From Mustelus asterias (taxonomy: Eukaryota): a DNA stretch of 64,000 nt. The position numbers and the translations under genes are program-made. The notes beneath the pieces are model-generated. The model was not told the origin of the DNA, ran no database searches, and saw only the letters and a list, made by a program, of their open reading frames with translations. Where the stretch lies: positions 82,584,001 to 82,648,000 of the forward strand of contig NC_135809.1 of the NCBI RefSeq assembly GCF_964213995.1. Direction: 5' to 3'. Shown here piece after piece: positions 16-45,360 of the stretch (the stretch's first letter is position 1; every line of letters starts with the position of its first letter).

Positions 16-2928
16 CTATCTATAGCCCTCAATCCCATTAAATCCCATGTACTCATCCAGAAGTCTCTTAAAAGACCCCAACGAGTTTGCCTCCACCACC
101 ACCGACGTCAGCCGATTCCACTCACCCACCACCCACTGAGTGAAAAACTTACCCCTGACATCTCCTCTATACCTACCCCCCAGCACCTTAAACCTGTGTC
201 CTCTCGTAGCAACCATTTCAGCCCTTGGAAATAGCCTCTGAGAGTCTACCCTATCCAGACCTCTCAACATCTTGTAAACCTCTATCAGGTCACCTCTCAT
301 CCTTCGTCTCTCCAGGGAGAAGAGACCAAGCTCCCTCAACCTATCCTCATAAGGCATGCCCCCCAATCCAGGCAACATCCTTGTAAATCTCCTCTGCACC
401 CTTTCAATGGCTTCAACATCTTTCCTGTAATGAGGTGACCAGAACTGCGCGCAGTACTCCAAGTGGGGTCTAACCAGGGTCCTATAAAGCTGCAGCATTA
501 TCTCCCGACTCCTAAACTCAATCCCTCGATTAATGAAGGCCAGTACGCCGTACGCCTTCTTGACCGCATCCTCCACCTGCGAGGCCGATTTAAGAGTCCT
601 ATGGACCCGGACCCCAAGGTCCTTCTGATCCTCTACACTGCTAAGAATGGTACCCTTCATATTATACTGCTGCTTCATCCCATTGGATCTGCCAAAATGG
701 ATCACCACACACTTATCCGGGTTGAAGTCCATCTGCCACTTCTCCGCCCAGTCTTGCATTCTATCTATGTCTCGCTGCAACTTCTGACATCCCTCCAAAC
801 TATCCACAACACCACCTACCTTGGTGTCGTCAGCAAACTTACCAACCCATCCCTCCACTTCCTCATCCAGGTCATTTATGAAAATGACAAACAGCAAGGG
901 TCCCAGAACAGATCCCTGGGGCACTCCACTGGTCACTGACCTCCATGCAGAGAAAGACCCCTCCACAGCCACTCTCTGCCTTCTGCAGGCAAGCCAGTTC
1001 TGGATCCACAAGGCAACAGCCCCTTGGATCCCATGCCCTCTCACTTTCTCAAGAAGTCTTGCATGGGGGACCTTATCGAACGCCTTGCTGAAGTCCATAT
1101 AGACCACATCCACCGCTCTTCCTTTGTCAATGTGTTTGGTCACATTTTCAAAGAACTCAACCAGGCTCGTAAGGCACGACCTGCCCTTGACAAAGCCGTG
1201 CTGACTACTTTTGATCATACTAAACTTCTCTAGATGATCATAAATCCTGTCTCTCAGGATCCTCTCCATCAACTTACCAACCACTGAGGTTAGACTCACC
1301 GGTCGGTAATTTCCCGGGCTGTCCCTGTTCCCTTTCTTGAATATAGGGACCACATCTGCAATCCTCCAATCCTCCGGAACCTCTCCCGTCTCCATCGACG
1401 ATGCAAAGATCATCGCCAAAGGCTCCGCAATCTCCTCCCTCGCCTCCCACAGTAACCTGGGGTACATCCCATCCGGTCCCGGCGACTTACCAACCTTGAT
1501 GCCATTCAATAGTTCCAACACATCCTCTTTCTTTATGTCCACATGCTCGATCCTTTCTGTCCACCGCAAGCCAGCAGTACAACCACCCAGATCCCTTTCC
1601 ATCGTGAATACCGAGGTAAAGTATTCATTAAGCAGCTCCGCCATTTCTAACGGTTCCGCACAAACTTTTCCCCCTTCACCTTTTAAGGGTCCTATGCCTT
1701 CACATCTCATCCTTTTACTCTTGACATATTTGTAGAAAGCCTTGGGATTCTCCTTAATCTTACCCGCCAAGGCCTTCTCATGACCCCTTCTCGCTCTCCT
1801 AATTTCCTTCTTAAGCTCCTTCCTACATCCCGTATACTCCTCTAAATCCTTAACACCTCCTAGCTCTCTGAACCTTCTGTACGCCTCTCTTTTCTTATTC
1901 ACCAGGTTCATCACAACCTTCGTGCACCACGGTTCCCGTACCCTACCAACACCCCCCTGTCTCATCGGAATGTTGTCATGCAGAGCTCCAGACAAACATT
2001 CCTTGAAAATCCTCCACTTTCCTTTGGTACTTTTCCCCAAGAATGCCTCCTTCCAATTTACCCGTCTAATTTCCTCCCTGATGACACTGTATTTCCCTTT
2101 ACTCCAGAGAAACACTTTCCTAGCCTGCCTGATCCTATCTCTTTCCAATGCTATCGTGAAGGAGATAGAATTATGATCGCTATCCCCAAGATGCTCACCC
2201 ACCGAGAGATCCTCCATCTGTCCAGGTTCATTAGCCAGCACCAGATCAAGTACAGCCTCTCCTCTAGTAGGCTTATCCACATACTGTGTCAGGAAACTCT
2301 CCTGGACACACCTAACAAACTCCTCTCCATCCAAACCCCTAGCCCTAGGGATATTCCAATCTATGTTTGGGAAATTAAAATCTCCCATCACGACAACTCT
2401 GTTATTCCTACATCTCTCCAGGATCTGTTTCCCCATCTGCTCCTCAACATCTCTGTTACTATTGGGCGGCCTATAGAAAACACCCAGCAACGTTACCGAC
2501 CCCTTCCTGTTCCTAACCTCCACCCACAGAGACTCCGTAGTCAATCCCTCCACGGCGTCCACCTTCTCTACAGCCGTGACACTATCCCTGATCAACAGTG
2601 CCACTCCCCCCCCTCTCTTGCCTCCCTCCCTGTCCTTCCTGAAACATCTAAAACCCGGCACCTGAAGCACCCAGTCCTGTCCCTGAGACATCCAAGTCTC
2701 CGTAATGGCCACCACATCACAATTCGAAGCAGCAATCCACGCTCTAAGCTCATCCACTTTATTCACTACACTCCTGGCATTAAAATAGACACATCTCAGA
2801 CCTTCAGCCTGAGCACTTCCCTTCTCCATCACTCGTCTAACCTCCCTCTTACCCTGTTTACATTCCTTATCTATTTGCGAGCTAACCTCCTCGCTCTCAG
2901 TCCCCTCATTTCGATTCCCTCCCCCCAA
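16..2928 (-). CDS. CR1 ORF2: AP endonuclease + reverse transcriptase (first ATG at 2829, 937 aa)
   Basis: APE motifs YFNARS, AITETW, YRPP, MGDFNFP, SDHN; RT motifs [42 protein letters not shown]; CR1 C-terminus RPHLEYC...LGLFSLERRR...RGH. Confidence 0.97.
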   Translation of the reverse strand: MGGGNRNEGTESEEVSSQIDKECKQGKREVRRVMEKGSAQAEGLRCVYFNARSVVNKVDELRAWIAASNCDVVAITETWMSQGQDWVLQVPGFRCFRKDREGGKRGGGVALLIRDSVTAVEKVDAVEGLTTESLWVEVRNRKGSVTLLGVFYRPPNSNRDVEEQMGKQILERCRNNRVVVMGDFNFPNIDWNIPRARGLDGEEFVRCVQESFLTQYVDKPTRGEAVLDLVLANEPGQMEDLSVGEHLGDSDHNSISFTIALERDRIRQARKVFLWSKGKYSVIREEIRRVNWKEAFLGKSTKGKWRIFKECLSGALHDNIPMRQGGVGRVREPWCTKVVMNLVNKKREAYRRFRELGGVKDLEEYTGCRKELKKEIRRARRGHEKALAGKIKENPKAFYKYVKSKRMRCEGIGPLKGEGGKVCAEPLEMAELLNEYFTSVFTMERDLGGCTAGLRWTERIEHVDIKKEDVLELLNGIKVGKSPGPDGMYPRLLWEAREEIAEPLAMIFASSMETGEVPEDWRIADVVPIFKKGNRDSPGNYRPVSLTSVVGKLMERILRDRIYDHLEKFSMIKSSQHGFVKGRSCLTSLVEFFENVTKHIDKGRAVDVVYMDFSKAFDKVPHARLLEKVRGHGIQGAVALWIQNWLACRRQRVAVEGSFSAWRSVTSGVPQGSVLGPLLFVIFINDLDEEVEGWVGKFADDTKVGGVVDSLEGCQKLQRDIDRMQDWAEKWQMDFNPDKCVVIHFGRSNGMKQQYNMKGTILSSVEDQKDLGVRVHRTLKSASQVEDAVKKAYGVLAFINRGIEFRSREIMLQLYRTLVRPHLEYCAQFWSPHYRKDVEAIERVQRRFTRMLPGLGGMPYEDRLRELGLFSLERRRMRGDLIEVYKMLRGLDRVDSQRLFPRAEMVATRGHRFKVLGGRYRGDVRGKFFTQWVVGEWNRLTSVVVEANSLGSFKRLLDEYMGFNGIEGYR

Positions 2929-2933
2929 CCTTT

Positions 2934-3851
2934 CTAGTTTAAAGTCTCTCCAGTAGCCTTAGCCAACCTTCCCGCCAGGATATTGGTCCCCCTGGGATTC
3001 AAGTGCCACCCGTCTTTTTTAAACAGGTCACACCTGCCCCTAAAGAGGTCCCAATGATCCAAGTATCCAAATCCTTGTCCCTTGCTCCAGTCCCTCAGCC
3101 ACGCATTCATTCTCCACCGATTCCTGTTCTCACTCTCCCGCGGCACAGGCAGCAATCCCGAGATTACTACCTTTGCATTCCTCTTTCTCAGCTGTCTACC
3201 TAACTCCCTATATTCTCTTTTCATGACCCCTTCCCTCTTCCTACCTATGTCAGCAGTACCTATATGCATCACGACCTTCGGCTCCTCTCCCTCCCCTTTC
3301 AGGATTTCTGGGACTCGACCAGAGACATCCCGGACCCCTGCACCAGGGAGGCAAACCACCATCCGAGAGTCCCGTCTGTGTCCGCAAAAACGCCTATCTG
3401 ACCCCCTCACCGTAGAGTCCCCAATTAGCACTACCCTCCTTTCCTTACCCTTTTGCACTACTGGGCCAGGCTCAGCTCCAGAGACACTGCCACCGCTGCT
3501 TCCCCCAGGTGGGCTGTCCACCCCAGTAGTACTCAGACAGGAGTACTTATTATTAAGGGGCACATCCACCGGGGTGCTCACCATCAACCGAGCTTTCTCC
3601 TTCCTCACTGTTACCCAGTTACCCTCCTCCCGTGGTCCCGGTGTGACCACCTGCCGATAGCTCCTGTCAATGACCTCCTCACTATCCCTAACCCGGCGAA
3701 GGTCCTCGAGCTGCAATTCCAGTTCCCTAACATGGTCCCTTAGGAACCGCAGCTCAACACACCCAGCACAGATATGGTCGTCCGGGAGGCTAGGAGCCTC
3801 CAGGACCTCCCACATCCTACATTGGGAACAACATACTGGCCTCACACTCAT
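2934..3851 (-). CDS. CR1 ORF1: zinc finger + coiled coil + SGNH/GDSL esterase domain
   Basis: CSQC...HICAGC finger, heptad LRFLRDHVRELELQLEDL, PLNNKY motif, esterase blocks IGDS, PGA, HIGTAD, DGWHLN. ATG at 3851 (the ORF track starts at GTG 3869). Confidence 0.93.
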   Translation of the reverse strand: MSVRPVCCSQCRMWEVLEAPSLPDDHICAGCVELRFLRDHVRELELQLEDLRRVRDSEEVIDRSYRQVVTPGPREEGNWVTVRKEKARLMVSTPVDVPLNNKYSCLSTTGVDSPPGGSSGGSVSGAEPGPVVQKGKERRVVLIGDSTVRGSDRRFCGHRRDSRMVVCLPGAGVRDVSGRVPEILKGEGEEPKVVMHIGTADIGRKREGVMKREYRELGRQLRKRNAKVVISGLLPVPRESENRNRWRMNAWLRDWSKGQGFGYLDHWDLFRGRCDLFKKDGWHLNPRGTNILAGRLAKATGETLN

Positions 3852-4059
3852 AATTGCCCCTTTAAACACACAGGGAAAAAAAAGTGAATGAAAATTTTAA
3901 ACTTACCTTTCCTCCTCCTGTTTTCTCCAAAGCCCTGCTCTCACTGGGTCTTTTTTTTTAGGTTAGAGGGGGAGGGAGGGTGGGATACTCTACAAGTGTA
4001 GAGTATCGGGATTCCTCTCTGTTCCAATTTATTGGGGAAAAAAAAAAATCTCTCTCTCC

Positions 4060-18700: not shown

Positions 18701-19995
18701 TGTTATGATCCCCACAAAGACTAAAAACTCTTAAAAGAAATTCATCCCCTTGTCAACAGAAAGAAAGCAGATGGACAAGATTTCAATTTTTAAAACTTCT
18801 ACTGTAACATTCAAACCAAAATCAACCGATTTCAAACATTAATTAACAAGGAAGTCAAACTTCAAATAAATAAGTACATTTCACTTTACATAAAGATACA
18901 ATAAAAGTACACAAGACCACAGGCACCCGCTTCACTCATGAAACCATGTGTAGATCCAAAGTTCTCTAACTCAGTCTCCAGTATCCAGCATCTCTTTTCC
19001 ACTCAATCAATTCAGCCCTCAAGTGATGTTCACTGCCAACCATATTCCACCTGAGTTCCCCAGATACCACAGTGACAAACACTCCTAGTTAGCATGGGGA
19101 CTGTACGACCGGGGTAATGGGTGGTGGTTGGTGCTGTACTGCTGTTCAGCTAGGGAATGGGACACTGGTAGCATGGTGCAGTCTGCATCCACAGGTGCAC
19201 ATCGCATGTGTGCAAGATCCAGAGATGTGAAATAGAGGACAAAGGCTATCTCAACAGGCTGGAATATGTGAGTTGATCCCCTTAACACATACAGTTAATA
19301 CCTAAACAGCACAGTCTCAGAGAACTTCATTAACGGCATCCTCACTGGCACAGATTCCTCCAGAGACCCCTTCATCTGACCCCTTTAAATTGTCTTCTTG
19401 GCTTTGGCAAAACGAAAGCAACAGCAGTAGACTTGTTCAGTTCACAACTCCTGCTCTCCATGTCTTCAGCTTCCTGTCCTTTTTAACTGATTTACACACA
19501 CACAGCTCCTTGTACACTTGCCTTCTTGGGTTCTTCCAGCTGCAAATGTGAAACTACACGAAGATTTCTGTCTGTGTGTTCTGCAACTAAACTAACTACA
19601 GCAGAACAGGCTTTAACCTGACACCACACCATTCAAGGTTTAATTAGCCCTTTTTTAAAAAAGGTTTTCTTCACCATAGGAATCTCAACCAAATTTGAAT
19701 TTATTTTATAAAAGCAAATTACTGTGGATGCTGGATCTGAAATAAAAACAGAAAATGCTGGAAAATCTCAGCAGGTCTGACAGCATCTGTGGAGAGAACA
19801 GAGCCAACGTTTCAAGTCTGGATGCCTCTTTGACAGACTTTCCATCAACTTCTTTGAAGTTGGTTAAGAAGTATAATTACCACCAATCATACCTGCCACA
19901 TTTCCAGAATTCTGCCCAGTTTCACTTCGGAAGCAAAGGGACACTCTGCAAGAAGAAAATGCAGACTTTTCCTTTAAAGCGCAAGGGTTATCACA
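18701..19995. mobile_element. Solo LTR (Gypsy-type) with a nested Penelope terminal repeat
   Basis: Starts TGTTATGA, ends TTATCACA; exact 4-bp TSD GTTG (18697-18700 / 19996-19999). Confidence 0.75.
19708..19840 (-). mobile_element. Penelope terminal-repeat fragment with a decayed hammerhead motif
   Basis: Highly similar to 43836-43970; minus strand CTGTCAA...GAAACGTT. Confidence 0.8.
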
Positions 19996-20524
19996 GTTGC
20001 GACTTTCTCATTTTTGCCTGGGATTCATGATGCGCAATTTGATCAATGCTCAACTAACCTTGTGTGCTTTTTAGTGGCTCTGTCAAGACCAACAGCAACA
20101 AAGAATAGTGGCATGTTACCTACCTGCCTTTTGGTTATAGTTGAAACATAGGCGAATGAGATCAATGTAGAGAGGAAGAGATAATCTGTAATGGTTTAGG
20201 GTGGTGGTGATGGGGGAGGGTGTGGTTGATGAGGCATGGCAGCAGGGTTGGCAATCAGCCAGTTCTTGGCAAGGCCAGTATTTGTTGTACTTTCTAATTG
20301 CCCATGAGAAGGTGGTAGTGAGCTGCCTTCTTGAACACTGCTGTCCATCTGGTGTAGGAACCACAGTGCTATTAGGGGAGAGTTCCAGATTTTTGATCCA
20401 GTGACAGTGAAGGAATGGCGATATAATTCCAAATGTGGAGATGCCGGCGTTGGACTGGGGTGAACACAGTAAGAGTTTTAACAACACCAGGTTAAAGTCC
20501 AACAGGTTTATTTGGTAGCAAATA

Positions 20525-20561
20525 CCATTAGCTTTCGGAGTGCTGCTCCTTCGTCAGATGG
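20525..20561 (-). ncRNA. Minimal type I hammerhead ribozyme (mirror copy)
   Basis: Reverse complement of 20580-20616 with one change at the stem II/loop boundary. Confidence 0.75.
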
Positions 20562-20579
20562 AGTGGAAATGTTTCCACT

Positions 20580-20616
20580 CCATCTGACGAAGGAGCAGCG
20601 CTCCGAAAGCTAATGG
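20580..20616 (+). ncRNA. Minimal type I hammerhead ribozyme
   Basis: CCAT-CTGACGA-A-GGAGC(AGC)GCTCC-GAAA-GC-TA-ATGG: stem I CCAT/ATGG, core CUGAnGA/GAAA/UH, palindromic AGCT stem III. Confidence 0.8.
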
Positions 20617-20934
20617 TATTTGCTACCAAATAAACCTGTTGGACTTTAACCTGGTGTTGTTAAAACTCTTACGATATAATTCCAAGCCAGGATGGTGTGT
20701 AGCTTTAAGGGGAACTTGCAGGTGGTGGTGTTTCCATGCGTCTTCAATTAAGTATAAGGTATGCTTGACTTTTATCCTCAATTGCTTTTGTTAAAAAGTA
20801 GAAACGTTCAAAAGACAAGGGACATCTTTCCCCCAGAGCACCACCCCCCAGCACCCGCACCCCCTTACCCCACCCTGTTTATACCTAATCATTGTTAATC
20901 TTTGGAACAAGTACATGACTTCTCTAATAAGATG

Positions 20935-21310
20935 AGCAAAATACTGCTGATGCTGGAATCTGAAACAAAAACAGAGAATGCTGAAAAAGCTCAGCGATGG
21001 GATTTTATGGCCTCGCTTGAGTGAGGTAGAATTCTGGCAAGCAGGTCTGGCAGCATCTGTAAGGAGGGAAAGCAGAATTAATGTTTTGAATCCTTTTGGC
21101 TCTTCTTCAGAACTGAAGAGAGGGAGAATGTGTTAGATTTTAAAGTGTAACTGTGAGAGATTACAACAAAATGTTGCAACTTTAAGAACAAAAGGCAGGT
21201 GGCCTGGTGGGGGAGAGTGAGAAGAGCTTGCATTAAGGTAATACATGGATGGGATATTTTAAAAAGAGGGTTTAAGATGGAGGAGAAAAGCCACAATCTC
21301 GAGCTACTGA
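20935..21310 (-). mobile_element. Decayed Penelope terminal repeat/3' region, with a short MITE remnant at ~20997-21040
   Basis: gcaaaatactgctgatgctggaatctgaaac matches 43838; minus strand CTGAAGA-AGAGCC...GGATTC-AAAA. Confidence 0.75.
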
Positions 21311-43469: not shown

Positions 43470-45360
43470 TTGTTACCTTCTCATAACTTGTTTCTTCACC
43501 CACTTTTATATCATCAGCAAATGTGGCTACATTACGCTTCTTCACTTCATCTGAGTCATTAATGTAGATTGTAAATAGTTGAGTTTGCAGCACTGGCCCC
43601 TGTGACATTCCATAGTTTTTCAACCTGAAAATGACCTATTCACCCTGACTCTGTTTCCTGTTAGATAGCCAATCCCCTGTTCATGAAAATATATCTCCCC
43701 CAACACTGAGTCCTGACTTTGTGCCATAACCTTTCAGGTGACAACTTATTGATGTTTTTTTGGAAAACGAAATACGCCACAGCCACTGGTTCACTTTTAT
43801 CCACCCTGCTGTTGTATCCTCAAATAAATATAATAAAAGCAAATTACTGTGGATGCTGGAATCTGAAACCAAAAGAGAAAATGCTGGAACTTCTCAGCAG
43901 GTCTGGCAGCATCTGTAAGGAGAGAAAAGAGCTGACGTTTTGAGTCCAGATGACCCTTTGTCAAAGCTAAAAGGCATAGGAAGTGCGAGATATTTATACT
44001 GTGGGACAAGGGAATGAAAGATGAGCCATAGCCACAAAACCAACGGGAAAGGCTACTTACTAATGGCAGTCCATAGAGAGAATAGAGGATGTAAATGGCT
44101 AAACAGCAGAGAAGCTGAAATCAGAAGGTAAGCTGTGACAGATGAAGATGTGGGGGGGATGGGGGGAGATGGGTGGGAGAGAGGTAACATTGAGAAAAAG
44201 GGGGAAAGGGGAAACAAAGAAGGAGAAAAGGTAAAGAAAGGGGGATAAAATAGGGGGAAAGAGTGGGGGGGGGAAGAAAAATAAAGACAACAAAGAAATA
44301 AAGTTAAAAATTAAATGAAAACAAAGGGGTTGAGGTGGGGTCGAGCTAATCATCTGAAGTTGTTGAATTTGATGTTGAGACTGGAAAGCTGTAATGTGCC
44401 CAGCCGGAAGATGAGGTGCTGTTCTTCCAGTTTGCATTGAACTTCACTGGAACGTTGCAGCAGGCCAAGAACAGACATGTGGGCATGGGAGCAGGATTGT
44501 GTGTTAAAATGGCAAGCAACGGGAAGGTCAAGGTCTTGATTGTGCACAGACAGAATGTGCCCAGCAAAGCGATCACCCAGTCTACATTTGGTCTCTCCGA
44601 TATAGAGGAGACCACATTGGGAGCAGCGAATGCAATAGTCCAAATTGAAAGAGGTGCAAATGAAATGCTGCTTAACCTGGAATGAATGTTTTGGACCTTG
44701 GATGGTGAGCATGGAAGAGGTGAAGGGGCAGGTATTACACCTTCTGCAATTGCATGAGAAGGTGCCATGGGTCATGGGAGAGGTGTTGGGTGTAGTAAAG
44801 GAGTGGACCAGGTTGTCCCAGAGGGAATAGTCTCTGCAGAATGCTGACAGAGGGAGTGGAGGGGAGCTGTGTTTGGAGGTGGCATCATGCTGGAGTTGGC
44901 GAAAATGGCGGAGGATTATTCTTTGCATGTGGAGGCTAGTGCGGTGAAATGAGAGAACAAGGGGGCCTATCCTTCTTCTGGGAGGAAAGGGAGGGGGTGA
45001 GGGTCATGGTGCGGGAGATGGGTCCACGTTGTTGAGGGGCCTGTCAGCAACTGTAGGTGGGAATCCATGGTTGAAGAAGAAGGAGCACATATTAGAAGCA
45101 CCACTTTGGAAAGTGGCGTTATCGGAACAAATGTGACAGAGGCGAAGGAGCTGAGAGAAAGGGATGGAGTCCTTACAGGATGTAAATCTAATACAGTGTC
45201 AAGCATAATTTTCCTATGCTTGTATTATGACTTTCTAAATATCCTGCTAATGCTTCCTTAATAATGGATTCAAGCATTTCCCAATGACAGGTGTCAGGTT
45301 TATTAGCCTAGAGTTTATTGCTGTCAGTCTCCCTCCCTTCTTGAATAAAGGTGTTTCCAT
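43470..45360 (-). mobile_element. Old CR1 RT fragment split by the Penelope insertion
   Basis: LFTIYIND...FADD remnant at 43490-43610; continuation at 45183-45360. Confidence 0.75.
43836..45182 (-). mobile_element. 5'-truncated Penelope-like element (RT C-terminus, GIY-YIG endonuclease, terminal repeat)
   Basis: ORF 44350-44928 with C-C-C-C motif and YCIRCSQCGLLYIGETKCRLGDRFAGH...EQHLIFRLGTL; TSD TAAAT(A/C)TAATA (43825-43835 / 45183-45193). Confidence 0.92.

Follow-up and report, generated by a model that had tools for sequence, protein, structure and literature searches.

A stretch of 64,000 nucleotides of the Mustelus asterias genome (NC_135809.1, positions 82,584,001 to 82,648,000; hereafter the window) contains at 20419..20685 a compact palindromic insertion with a hammerhead motif in each arm. 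An earlier note had interpreted this insertion as a distinct protein-free, ribozyme-bearing mini-retroelement mobilised in trans by a Penelope-like element (PLE). The locus thus raises the question of whether such a palindrome is a mobile element in its own right or the product of a single insertion event of a larger element.

The architecture described in the earlier note was recovered in full. The left arm (20469-20569, 101 nt) is 99% complementary to 20572-20672, with 2 nt between the arms and a single mismatch, of CpG type, at 20541/20600. On one side only, the palindrome is extended by a 36-nt PLE 'tail' on the minus strand (20433..20468). The insertion is bounded by a 14-bp target site duplication (TSD), whose left copy (20419..20432, plus strand) is repeated directly at 20672..20685 (plus strand), base 20672 being part of both the arm and the TSD. 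It lies within an old interspersed host repeat (20310..20740, approximate limits from paralogue alignment). When the insert is removed, the flanks give a gapless colinear alignment with a paralogue of this repeat near 27.1 kb, which, as had been noted, has the target only once, with one difference. At least seven further paralogues among the fetched loci are also colinear with the insertion-free flanks, and the site is thus empty in all these copies. A short interspersed repeat, present in two copies 1.2 kb apart (19713-19790 and 20935-21060), flanks the locus, and a similar sequence also follows a PLE fragment near 43.9 kb.

Each arm corresponds to the 3' end of a PLE pLTR. The tailed arm (20433..20572, minus strand) is 98.6% identical over 138 nt to another genomic copy, L064, and its 5' end falls, in mirror coordinates, 9 nt upstream of position 20578, which we used as a reference point. 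For the untailed arm (20572..20672, plus strand), the corresponding upstream distance of the 5' end is 6 nt. Comparison of the window sequence with the upstream sequence of the family indicated that base 20572 is common to both arms, as a 1-nt microhomology with the common allele. An AATAAA hexamer is present in the pLTR at 20629..20634 (plus strand, identified from sequence only). It does lie downstream of the hammerhead, as claimed previously, but the arms run 38 and 74 nt past it and carry no poly(A).

The plus-strand motif is a minimal type I hammerhead (20580..20616), with stem I at 20580-83/20613-16, the core at 20584-90, an extra A at 20591, stem II at 20592-96/20600-04 and GAAA at 20605-08. 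The conserved core, the extra base, the G10.1-C11.1 pair and the palindromic 15.2-16.2 positions are those of minimal PLE hammerheads, and our reading of the motif agrees with the cut already predicted after A20612. Stems I and II form the minimum free energy (MFE) structure predicted for the 43-nt piece (z -1.69). The minus-strand motif (20525..20561, predicted cut between 20529 and 20528) retains its core, but the loop-closing pair of stem II is mismatched (20541) and the MFE structure is not a hammerhead. The earlier claim of an intact hammerhead in each arm is thus correct as to one motif per arm with intact cores, but not as to the minus-strand stem II. In an alignment of 28 sequences (27 of 44 distinct arms plus the window copy), in which the hammerhead columns alone were scored because the first row spans the palindrome centre, 95.6% of the helix I and II cells were paired, against 92.4% after shuffling. 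Two-sided cells numbered 12 against 3.9 in shuffled alignments, while changes on both sides occurred in two pairs, a result matched by 303 of 500 shuffles. A scan against Rfam returned no hammerhead family up to E 5. The whole element is predicted to fold as a hairpin of -204.9 kcal/mol (z -29.65), in keeping with the earlier suggestion that a read-through transcript would mask the ribozyme. Since it is predicted to be masked within this 101-bp hairpin, the window copy is probably inert as a ribozyme.

The sequence of the arms was then traced to its source. The window ribozyme core has 39,371 exact matches in the 3.68-Gb assembly, and in 8,851 of them, in one allele, the match extends upstream past the centre of the window's palindrome. 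Upstream of the arm, at a distance of about 190 nt, is the end of an ORF that encodes RT and GIY-YIG domains; some copies have open frames of 880-940 codons. In two loci, L079 and L080, a pLTR stands on either side of the ORF and the tail extends as far as the ORF's start codon; the frame of L079 encodes 892 aa. Tail-to-ORF-start junctions were found 831 times in the genome, and L064, the copy matching the window's tailed arm at its end, carries ORF fragments. RVT_1 was detected in the parent ORF by Pfam at or above the cut-off. GIY-YIG scored E 4.4e-4 and 20.9 bits, under the cut-off of 22.6, at residues 342-377 of a 437-aa piece; Pfam did not report it for the 892-aa frame. A VVY...YIG motif is visible in the ORF sequence. 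The linker has the form CX4CxxC, and two Cys lie between the positions equivalent to GIY and YIG; these features, read by eye, point to a parent of the Neptune/Nematis type, clades marked by a CX2-5CxxC linker upstream of the endonuclease and by a CCHH motif. The 892-aa protein gave no match to PDB sequences at E 0.01, and a non-exhaustive search found no intact ORF carrying the window's exact allele.

The window arm is therefore the 3' end (pLTR plus tail) of an abundant ORF-bearing RT/GIY-YIG PLE. All the components of an EN+ PLE insertion were present: a parent ORF with RT and GIY-YIG, a pLTR before and after this ORF, an inverted 5'-truncated copy, a tail and a TSD. The PLE origin put forward in the earlier note was thus borne out and an ORF-bearing partner was found. 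The separate mini-retroelement that it postulated had to be given up, the arm being simply the end of that partner. As anticipated, this partner is also distinct from the PLE located near 44 kb, with which it shares 32% identity across 173 aligned residues; the latter is a decayed 3' fragment of another family (44350-45180, minus strand), the comparison covering the endonuclease region. Several sister PLE families with different hammerhead stems (for example at L046, L141 and L224) share the pLTR 3' end, a 22-nt anchor of which has 195,801 exact matches.

The earlier note had asked whether the hairpin centre was constant, as expected for a replicating unit. It proved variable. The cores were separated by 0-30 nt in 2,147 short palindromes and by 31-61 nt in a further 860. 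The window's exact centre was present in 40 of the 2,147; among 30 of these 40, 16 carried the tail to the left, 12 carried it to the right and two lacked it, and same-centre copies span both main subfamilies (at least two). Inverted partners ranged from about 100 nt to 2.3 kb, were often unequal in length, and lay within 1.5 kb for 17 of 30 unselected arms. Junctions and ends were scored in 76 palindromes, comprising the first 50 listed loci with a gap of 0-30 and 26 of the first 28 with a gap of 31-61 (the first two being left out). TSDs of at least 10 nt were identified in 51 of them and of 7-9 nt in 13, none being found in 12. Arms were joined through microhomology in 17 cases, bluntly in 10, with inserts of 1-4 nt in 18 and with inserts of at least 5 nt in 31, the longer inserts being often locally templated. 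Distal subfamily marks differed clearly between the two arms in a single case (L197), while the mark beside the junction differed in 5 of the 26 longer palindromes. Because the centre is rarely shared and occurs in both orientations and in several subfamilies, whereas a replicating unit would hold one orientation and one allele, each palindrome was likely built at its own insertion. The constant inner sequence and orientation of MITE- or SINE-like unit replication were not found among the copies. Two loci 1.47 Mb apart, L185 (G000:C1:50425540-50426160) and L187 (G000:C1:51896760-51897380), share one complex junction that no other locus of the genome has, and differ in their TSDs and flanks; the pair may reflect gene conversion or the rare event of a palindrome being re-mobilised.

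The distribution of the tail was regular. Exactly one arm was tailed in 73 of the 76 scored palindromes of the window's family, in 41 of 42 units of a sister family and in 27 of 30 units whose arms end at the predicted cut site, that is in 141 of 148 units overall; both arms were tailed in 1 of 148. Among unselected arms, 12 of 30 were tailed, so that an independent choice for each arm would give one-tailed units about half the time. Moreover, 9 of 13 unselected arms without a near partner were untailed, which indicates that the near start site can be used on its own. This pattern suggests a paired reaction in which each target receives one start of each kind.

Arm-to-arm joints in the contigs of public runs first pointed to a stop at the predicted hammerhead cut. 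In the window's family, among 1,487 palindromes centred downstream of the core, 301 share a junction at which the longer arm starts at the cut, whereas a perfect 6-nt microhomology junction located just upstream of the cut occurred 18 times. Of the 49 loci among the first 50 that could be scored, 23 had the end of the longer arm either at the cut or one base upstream of it. The 301-copy junction contains a short self-complementary stretch and has snap-back geometry; of 30 copies checked, 22 had an allele with a 3-nt microhomology, for which ends at 0 and +1 are indistinguishable, and 8 an allele with 2 nt. The pile-up was cleaner in the sister family, whose post-cut sequence is different. There, 84 arms from 42 of the first 50 loci were scored, with a pattern admitting ends from -1 upward: 19 ended at -1, 30 at 0, four at +1, seven at +2, none at +3 or +4, two at +5, 19 at +6 (a 6-nt microhomology) and three at +7. 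The 6-nt microhomology junction upstream of the cut was also common in this family (9 of 42). Blunt joins numbered 77 at 0/0, against two at -1/-1 and one at +1/+1. Of the 77, 38 lie on contigs C1-C27 by hand count, the other 39 possibly including amplified copies, and five that were checked had unrelated flanks. The simplest reading of this spike, which from the junction sequences we consider probable, is a defined RNA 5' end at the hammerhead cut, and the pile-up is likely a genomic footprint of hammerhead cleavage in vivo. Cut-site stubs make up a small fraction of all arms.

The arms of the window copy stop upstream of the ribozyme, at a broader hotspot near 20578. In the 73 one-tailed short palindromes, 75 of 146 arm ends were located 7-11 nt upstream of this reference point, and with one anchor pair, spans of 62-92 nt outnumbered those of 31-61 nt (2,711 versus 1,300). 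Overall the hotspot is modest, the interval from -6 to -11 containing the ends of only 3 of 30 unselected arms, and it abuts a hairpin that is predicted in several alleles to end at -7. The 5' pLTR boundary fell at -7 to -11 in none of 11 loci with at least 600 nt of ORF (30 examined; two duplicates). Both a transcription start and a stall of the reverse transcriptase are possible explanations of the hotspot, while a splice-acceptor origin was dropped because the junctions show no constant exon sequence. Four of the 11 ORF-bearing tandems (L232, L236, L237 and L240; two duplicates) start at +53 to +59, at or just past the AATAAA and about 75 nt before the start codon, which may represent a third RNA end.

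The TSD, the single tail, the variable centres and the identity of the arm with an ORF-bearing PLE together lead to a model of paired insertion on two strands. The feature in the window is very probably a head-to-head pair of 3' ends of the RT/GIY-YIG PLE, likely produced in one insertion event by two reverse transcription runs on opposite target strands that were subsequently joined, and is likely not self-replicating. Nicks staggered by about 10-14 nt would generate the TSD; the tail would provide both starting points, its far end for one run and its near end for the other, and both runs would stop early. The two cDNA 3' ends would then be joined by microhomology or end-joining, with small inserts that are often locally templated. 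On a template cleaved beforehand by its own hammerhead, the two runs would both halt at the cleavage point, which would explain why the sister insertions pile up at a single base; the window copy would derive from an uncut template, with stops 6-9 nt upstream of the ribozyme. We lean slightly towards the broader proposal that such stubs record the PLE cycle itself, a protein pair priming both strands, one each, at the sites flanking the tail, with some templates cut beforehand so that hundreds of germ-line insertions end precisely on the cut.

Other origins of the palindrome have to be weighed against this paired insertion. A fold-back chimera of the assembly can hardly be entertained: none of the contigs from four public runs spans the locus, but an exact 14-bp TSD, empty paralogues, an asymmetric tail and one CpG-type arm mismatch are not what such a chimera would leave, and thousands of analogues have TSDs, with arm-to-arm joints recovered from public-run contigs as well. 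It is very improbable, too, that the insertion belongs to a distinct non-autonomous palindromic mini-retroelement replicating as a unit in the manner of a retrozyme or a MITE. The best 30 genome matches, selected for likeness, are near-identical over their full length, many with the same centre, and the junction common to L185 and L187 could be taken in the same sense. However, the scarcity of the centre, its two orientations and its several subfamilies speak against such a unit, as do a continuum of sizes up to ORF-bearing copies, the lack of a head-to-tail hammerhead array at this locus and a transcript predicted to be fully paired. A single cDNA folding back on itself by self-priming (snap-back), with the second arm copied from the first and one tail removed during endonuclease resolution, is unlikely, but it has antecedents, having been proposed in PMC3846280 and PMC8557442. 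Self-complementary hexamers are frequent sites of junctions (one motif accounts for three 6-nt cases among the first 50 loci), the arms usually bear the same subfamily marks, and the geometry of the 301-copy junction is that of a snap-back. Against this, arms can be very unequal (about 490 versus 2,450 nt in L061), blunt joins with both ends at the cut are not simple fold-backs, some palindromes (L025, L197) have arms of different alleles, and untailed single arms are common (the 9 of 13 noted above).

Paired insertion leaves a second choice, namely whether the ends at the cut reflect cleavage or a stall of the reverse transcriptase at the folded ribozyme, either at the end of stem I or at a dimeric stem III. 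We regard a stall as doubtful, while recognising that truncations also cluster elsewhere, at the hotspot beside a predicted hairpin, and that metazoan minimal hammerheads are poor cleavers in vitro (PMC4209133). A stall would presumably occur at the 3' foot of a helix, which would be located 4 nt downstream of the cut in the case of stem I and one base upstream in that of a dimeric stem III. The spike is observed on the cut itself, and the position one base upstream has few ends, across families with different post-cut sequences. Cleavage of the template before reverse transcription remains our preferred reading of these ends.

Many of the features described here have counterparts in the literature on PLEs. 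EN+ PLE insertions (PMC3846280; PMC8557442) are described with the same inverted truncated copy in head-to-head orientation, a tail at one end, a TSD and a hammerhead in the pLTR, the published structure comprising a pLTR, an inverted 5'-truncated copy and a tail of 30-40 bp. The present set differs in that both copies are about 100-140 nt long, in thousands of units, and in that the tail is on one arm in 141 of 148 cases and not 'often' or 'optionally', the wording of those passages. Arkhipova et al. 2013 (PMC3846280) attribute the head-to-head junctions to self-priming. The Poseidon element PAc of Anolis (Frangieh 2024, PMC11167929) offers a close biochemical parallel: a PLE protein was found in vitro to cleave and extend both target strands, using two start sites that flank the tail, no difference in start site being seen between the strands, and the hammerhead lies upstream of the tail, as here. 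In PAc, the ribozyme contains the start of the ORF, which also includes the tail, whereas in the window's family the tail stops at the start codon. The same study reports no RNA-seq ends at the cut in Anolis, whereas insertions of the window's family do stop there.

As to the ribozyme, the minimal metazoan PLE hammerheads described by Cervera and De la Pena 2014 (PMC4209133) have the same core, with an extra base after position 9 and G10.1-C11.1, the same palindromic 15.2-16.2 positions and the same 4-bp helix I; helix II has 5 bp here versus 7-8 bp in the Schistosoma families. The same paper mentions dual motifs on opposite strands, 100-700 bp apart, and describes weak cleavage in vitro and an absence of in vivo evidence for minimal hammerheads. 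Non-LTR retrozymes (Li 2026, bioRxiv 10.64898/2026.07.22.740005) are likewise protein-free, related to pLTRs and equipped with a type I hammerhead. They are arranged in head-to-tail tandem, whereas the unit in the window has its two copies head to head, with a centre that varies from locus to locus, and forms a continuum with an ORF-bearing element; classification as a non-LTR retrozyme was rejected, since the window holds one head-to-head unit with just two matching cores.

The element in the window is thus an inverted PLE insertion truncated in both of its copies, of the kind that a known retrotransposon class ordinarily leaves behind, and no new mobile element. The palindrome architecture itself is already known for PLEs; what goes beyond the published work found is the one-tail pattern and the pile-up at the cut. 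Our search, outside which lay most subscription papers and supplements, found in print neither the one-tail rule nor PLE insertions that end at the hammerhead cut, and nothing on this PLE family. These family patterns bear on two questions of the literature, the origin of the inverted structures of PLEs and the cutting of minimal hammerheads in vivo, and with tens of thousands of young arms in the genome, both can be tested from sequence at single-base resolution. If the proposed cycle is correct, minimal PLE hammerheads would self-cleave in vivo and the cut RNA would be reverse-transcribed, and head-to-head pLTRs would be accounted for without antisense self-priming. Perfect hairpins of about 100 bp, which number in the thousands, might besides give rise to double-stranded RNA and to rearrangement.

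Several other arrangements were observed among the loci retrieved. At L063 and L064 the assembly preserves near-perfect PLE palindromes whose arms measure about 1.0-1.2 kb, and L046 contains nested insertions of two PLE families. At L077 and L085, long-ORF copies lie within simple tandem arrays, an in-frame fusion at L085 producing an open frame of 1,918 aa. The window itself also contains an apparently intact LINE (16-3896, minus strand), which we take to be of the CR1 type; its 980-aa frame resembles APE-RT by eye, and ahead of it lies a 320-aa frame containing a GDSL/esterase domain. Many of the insertions at loci L031-L060 and L087-L221 seemed, by eye, to be located in LINE RT sequences or in other repeats.
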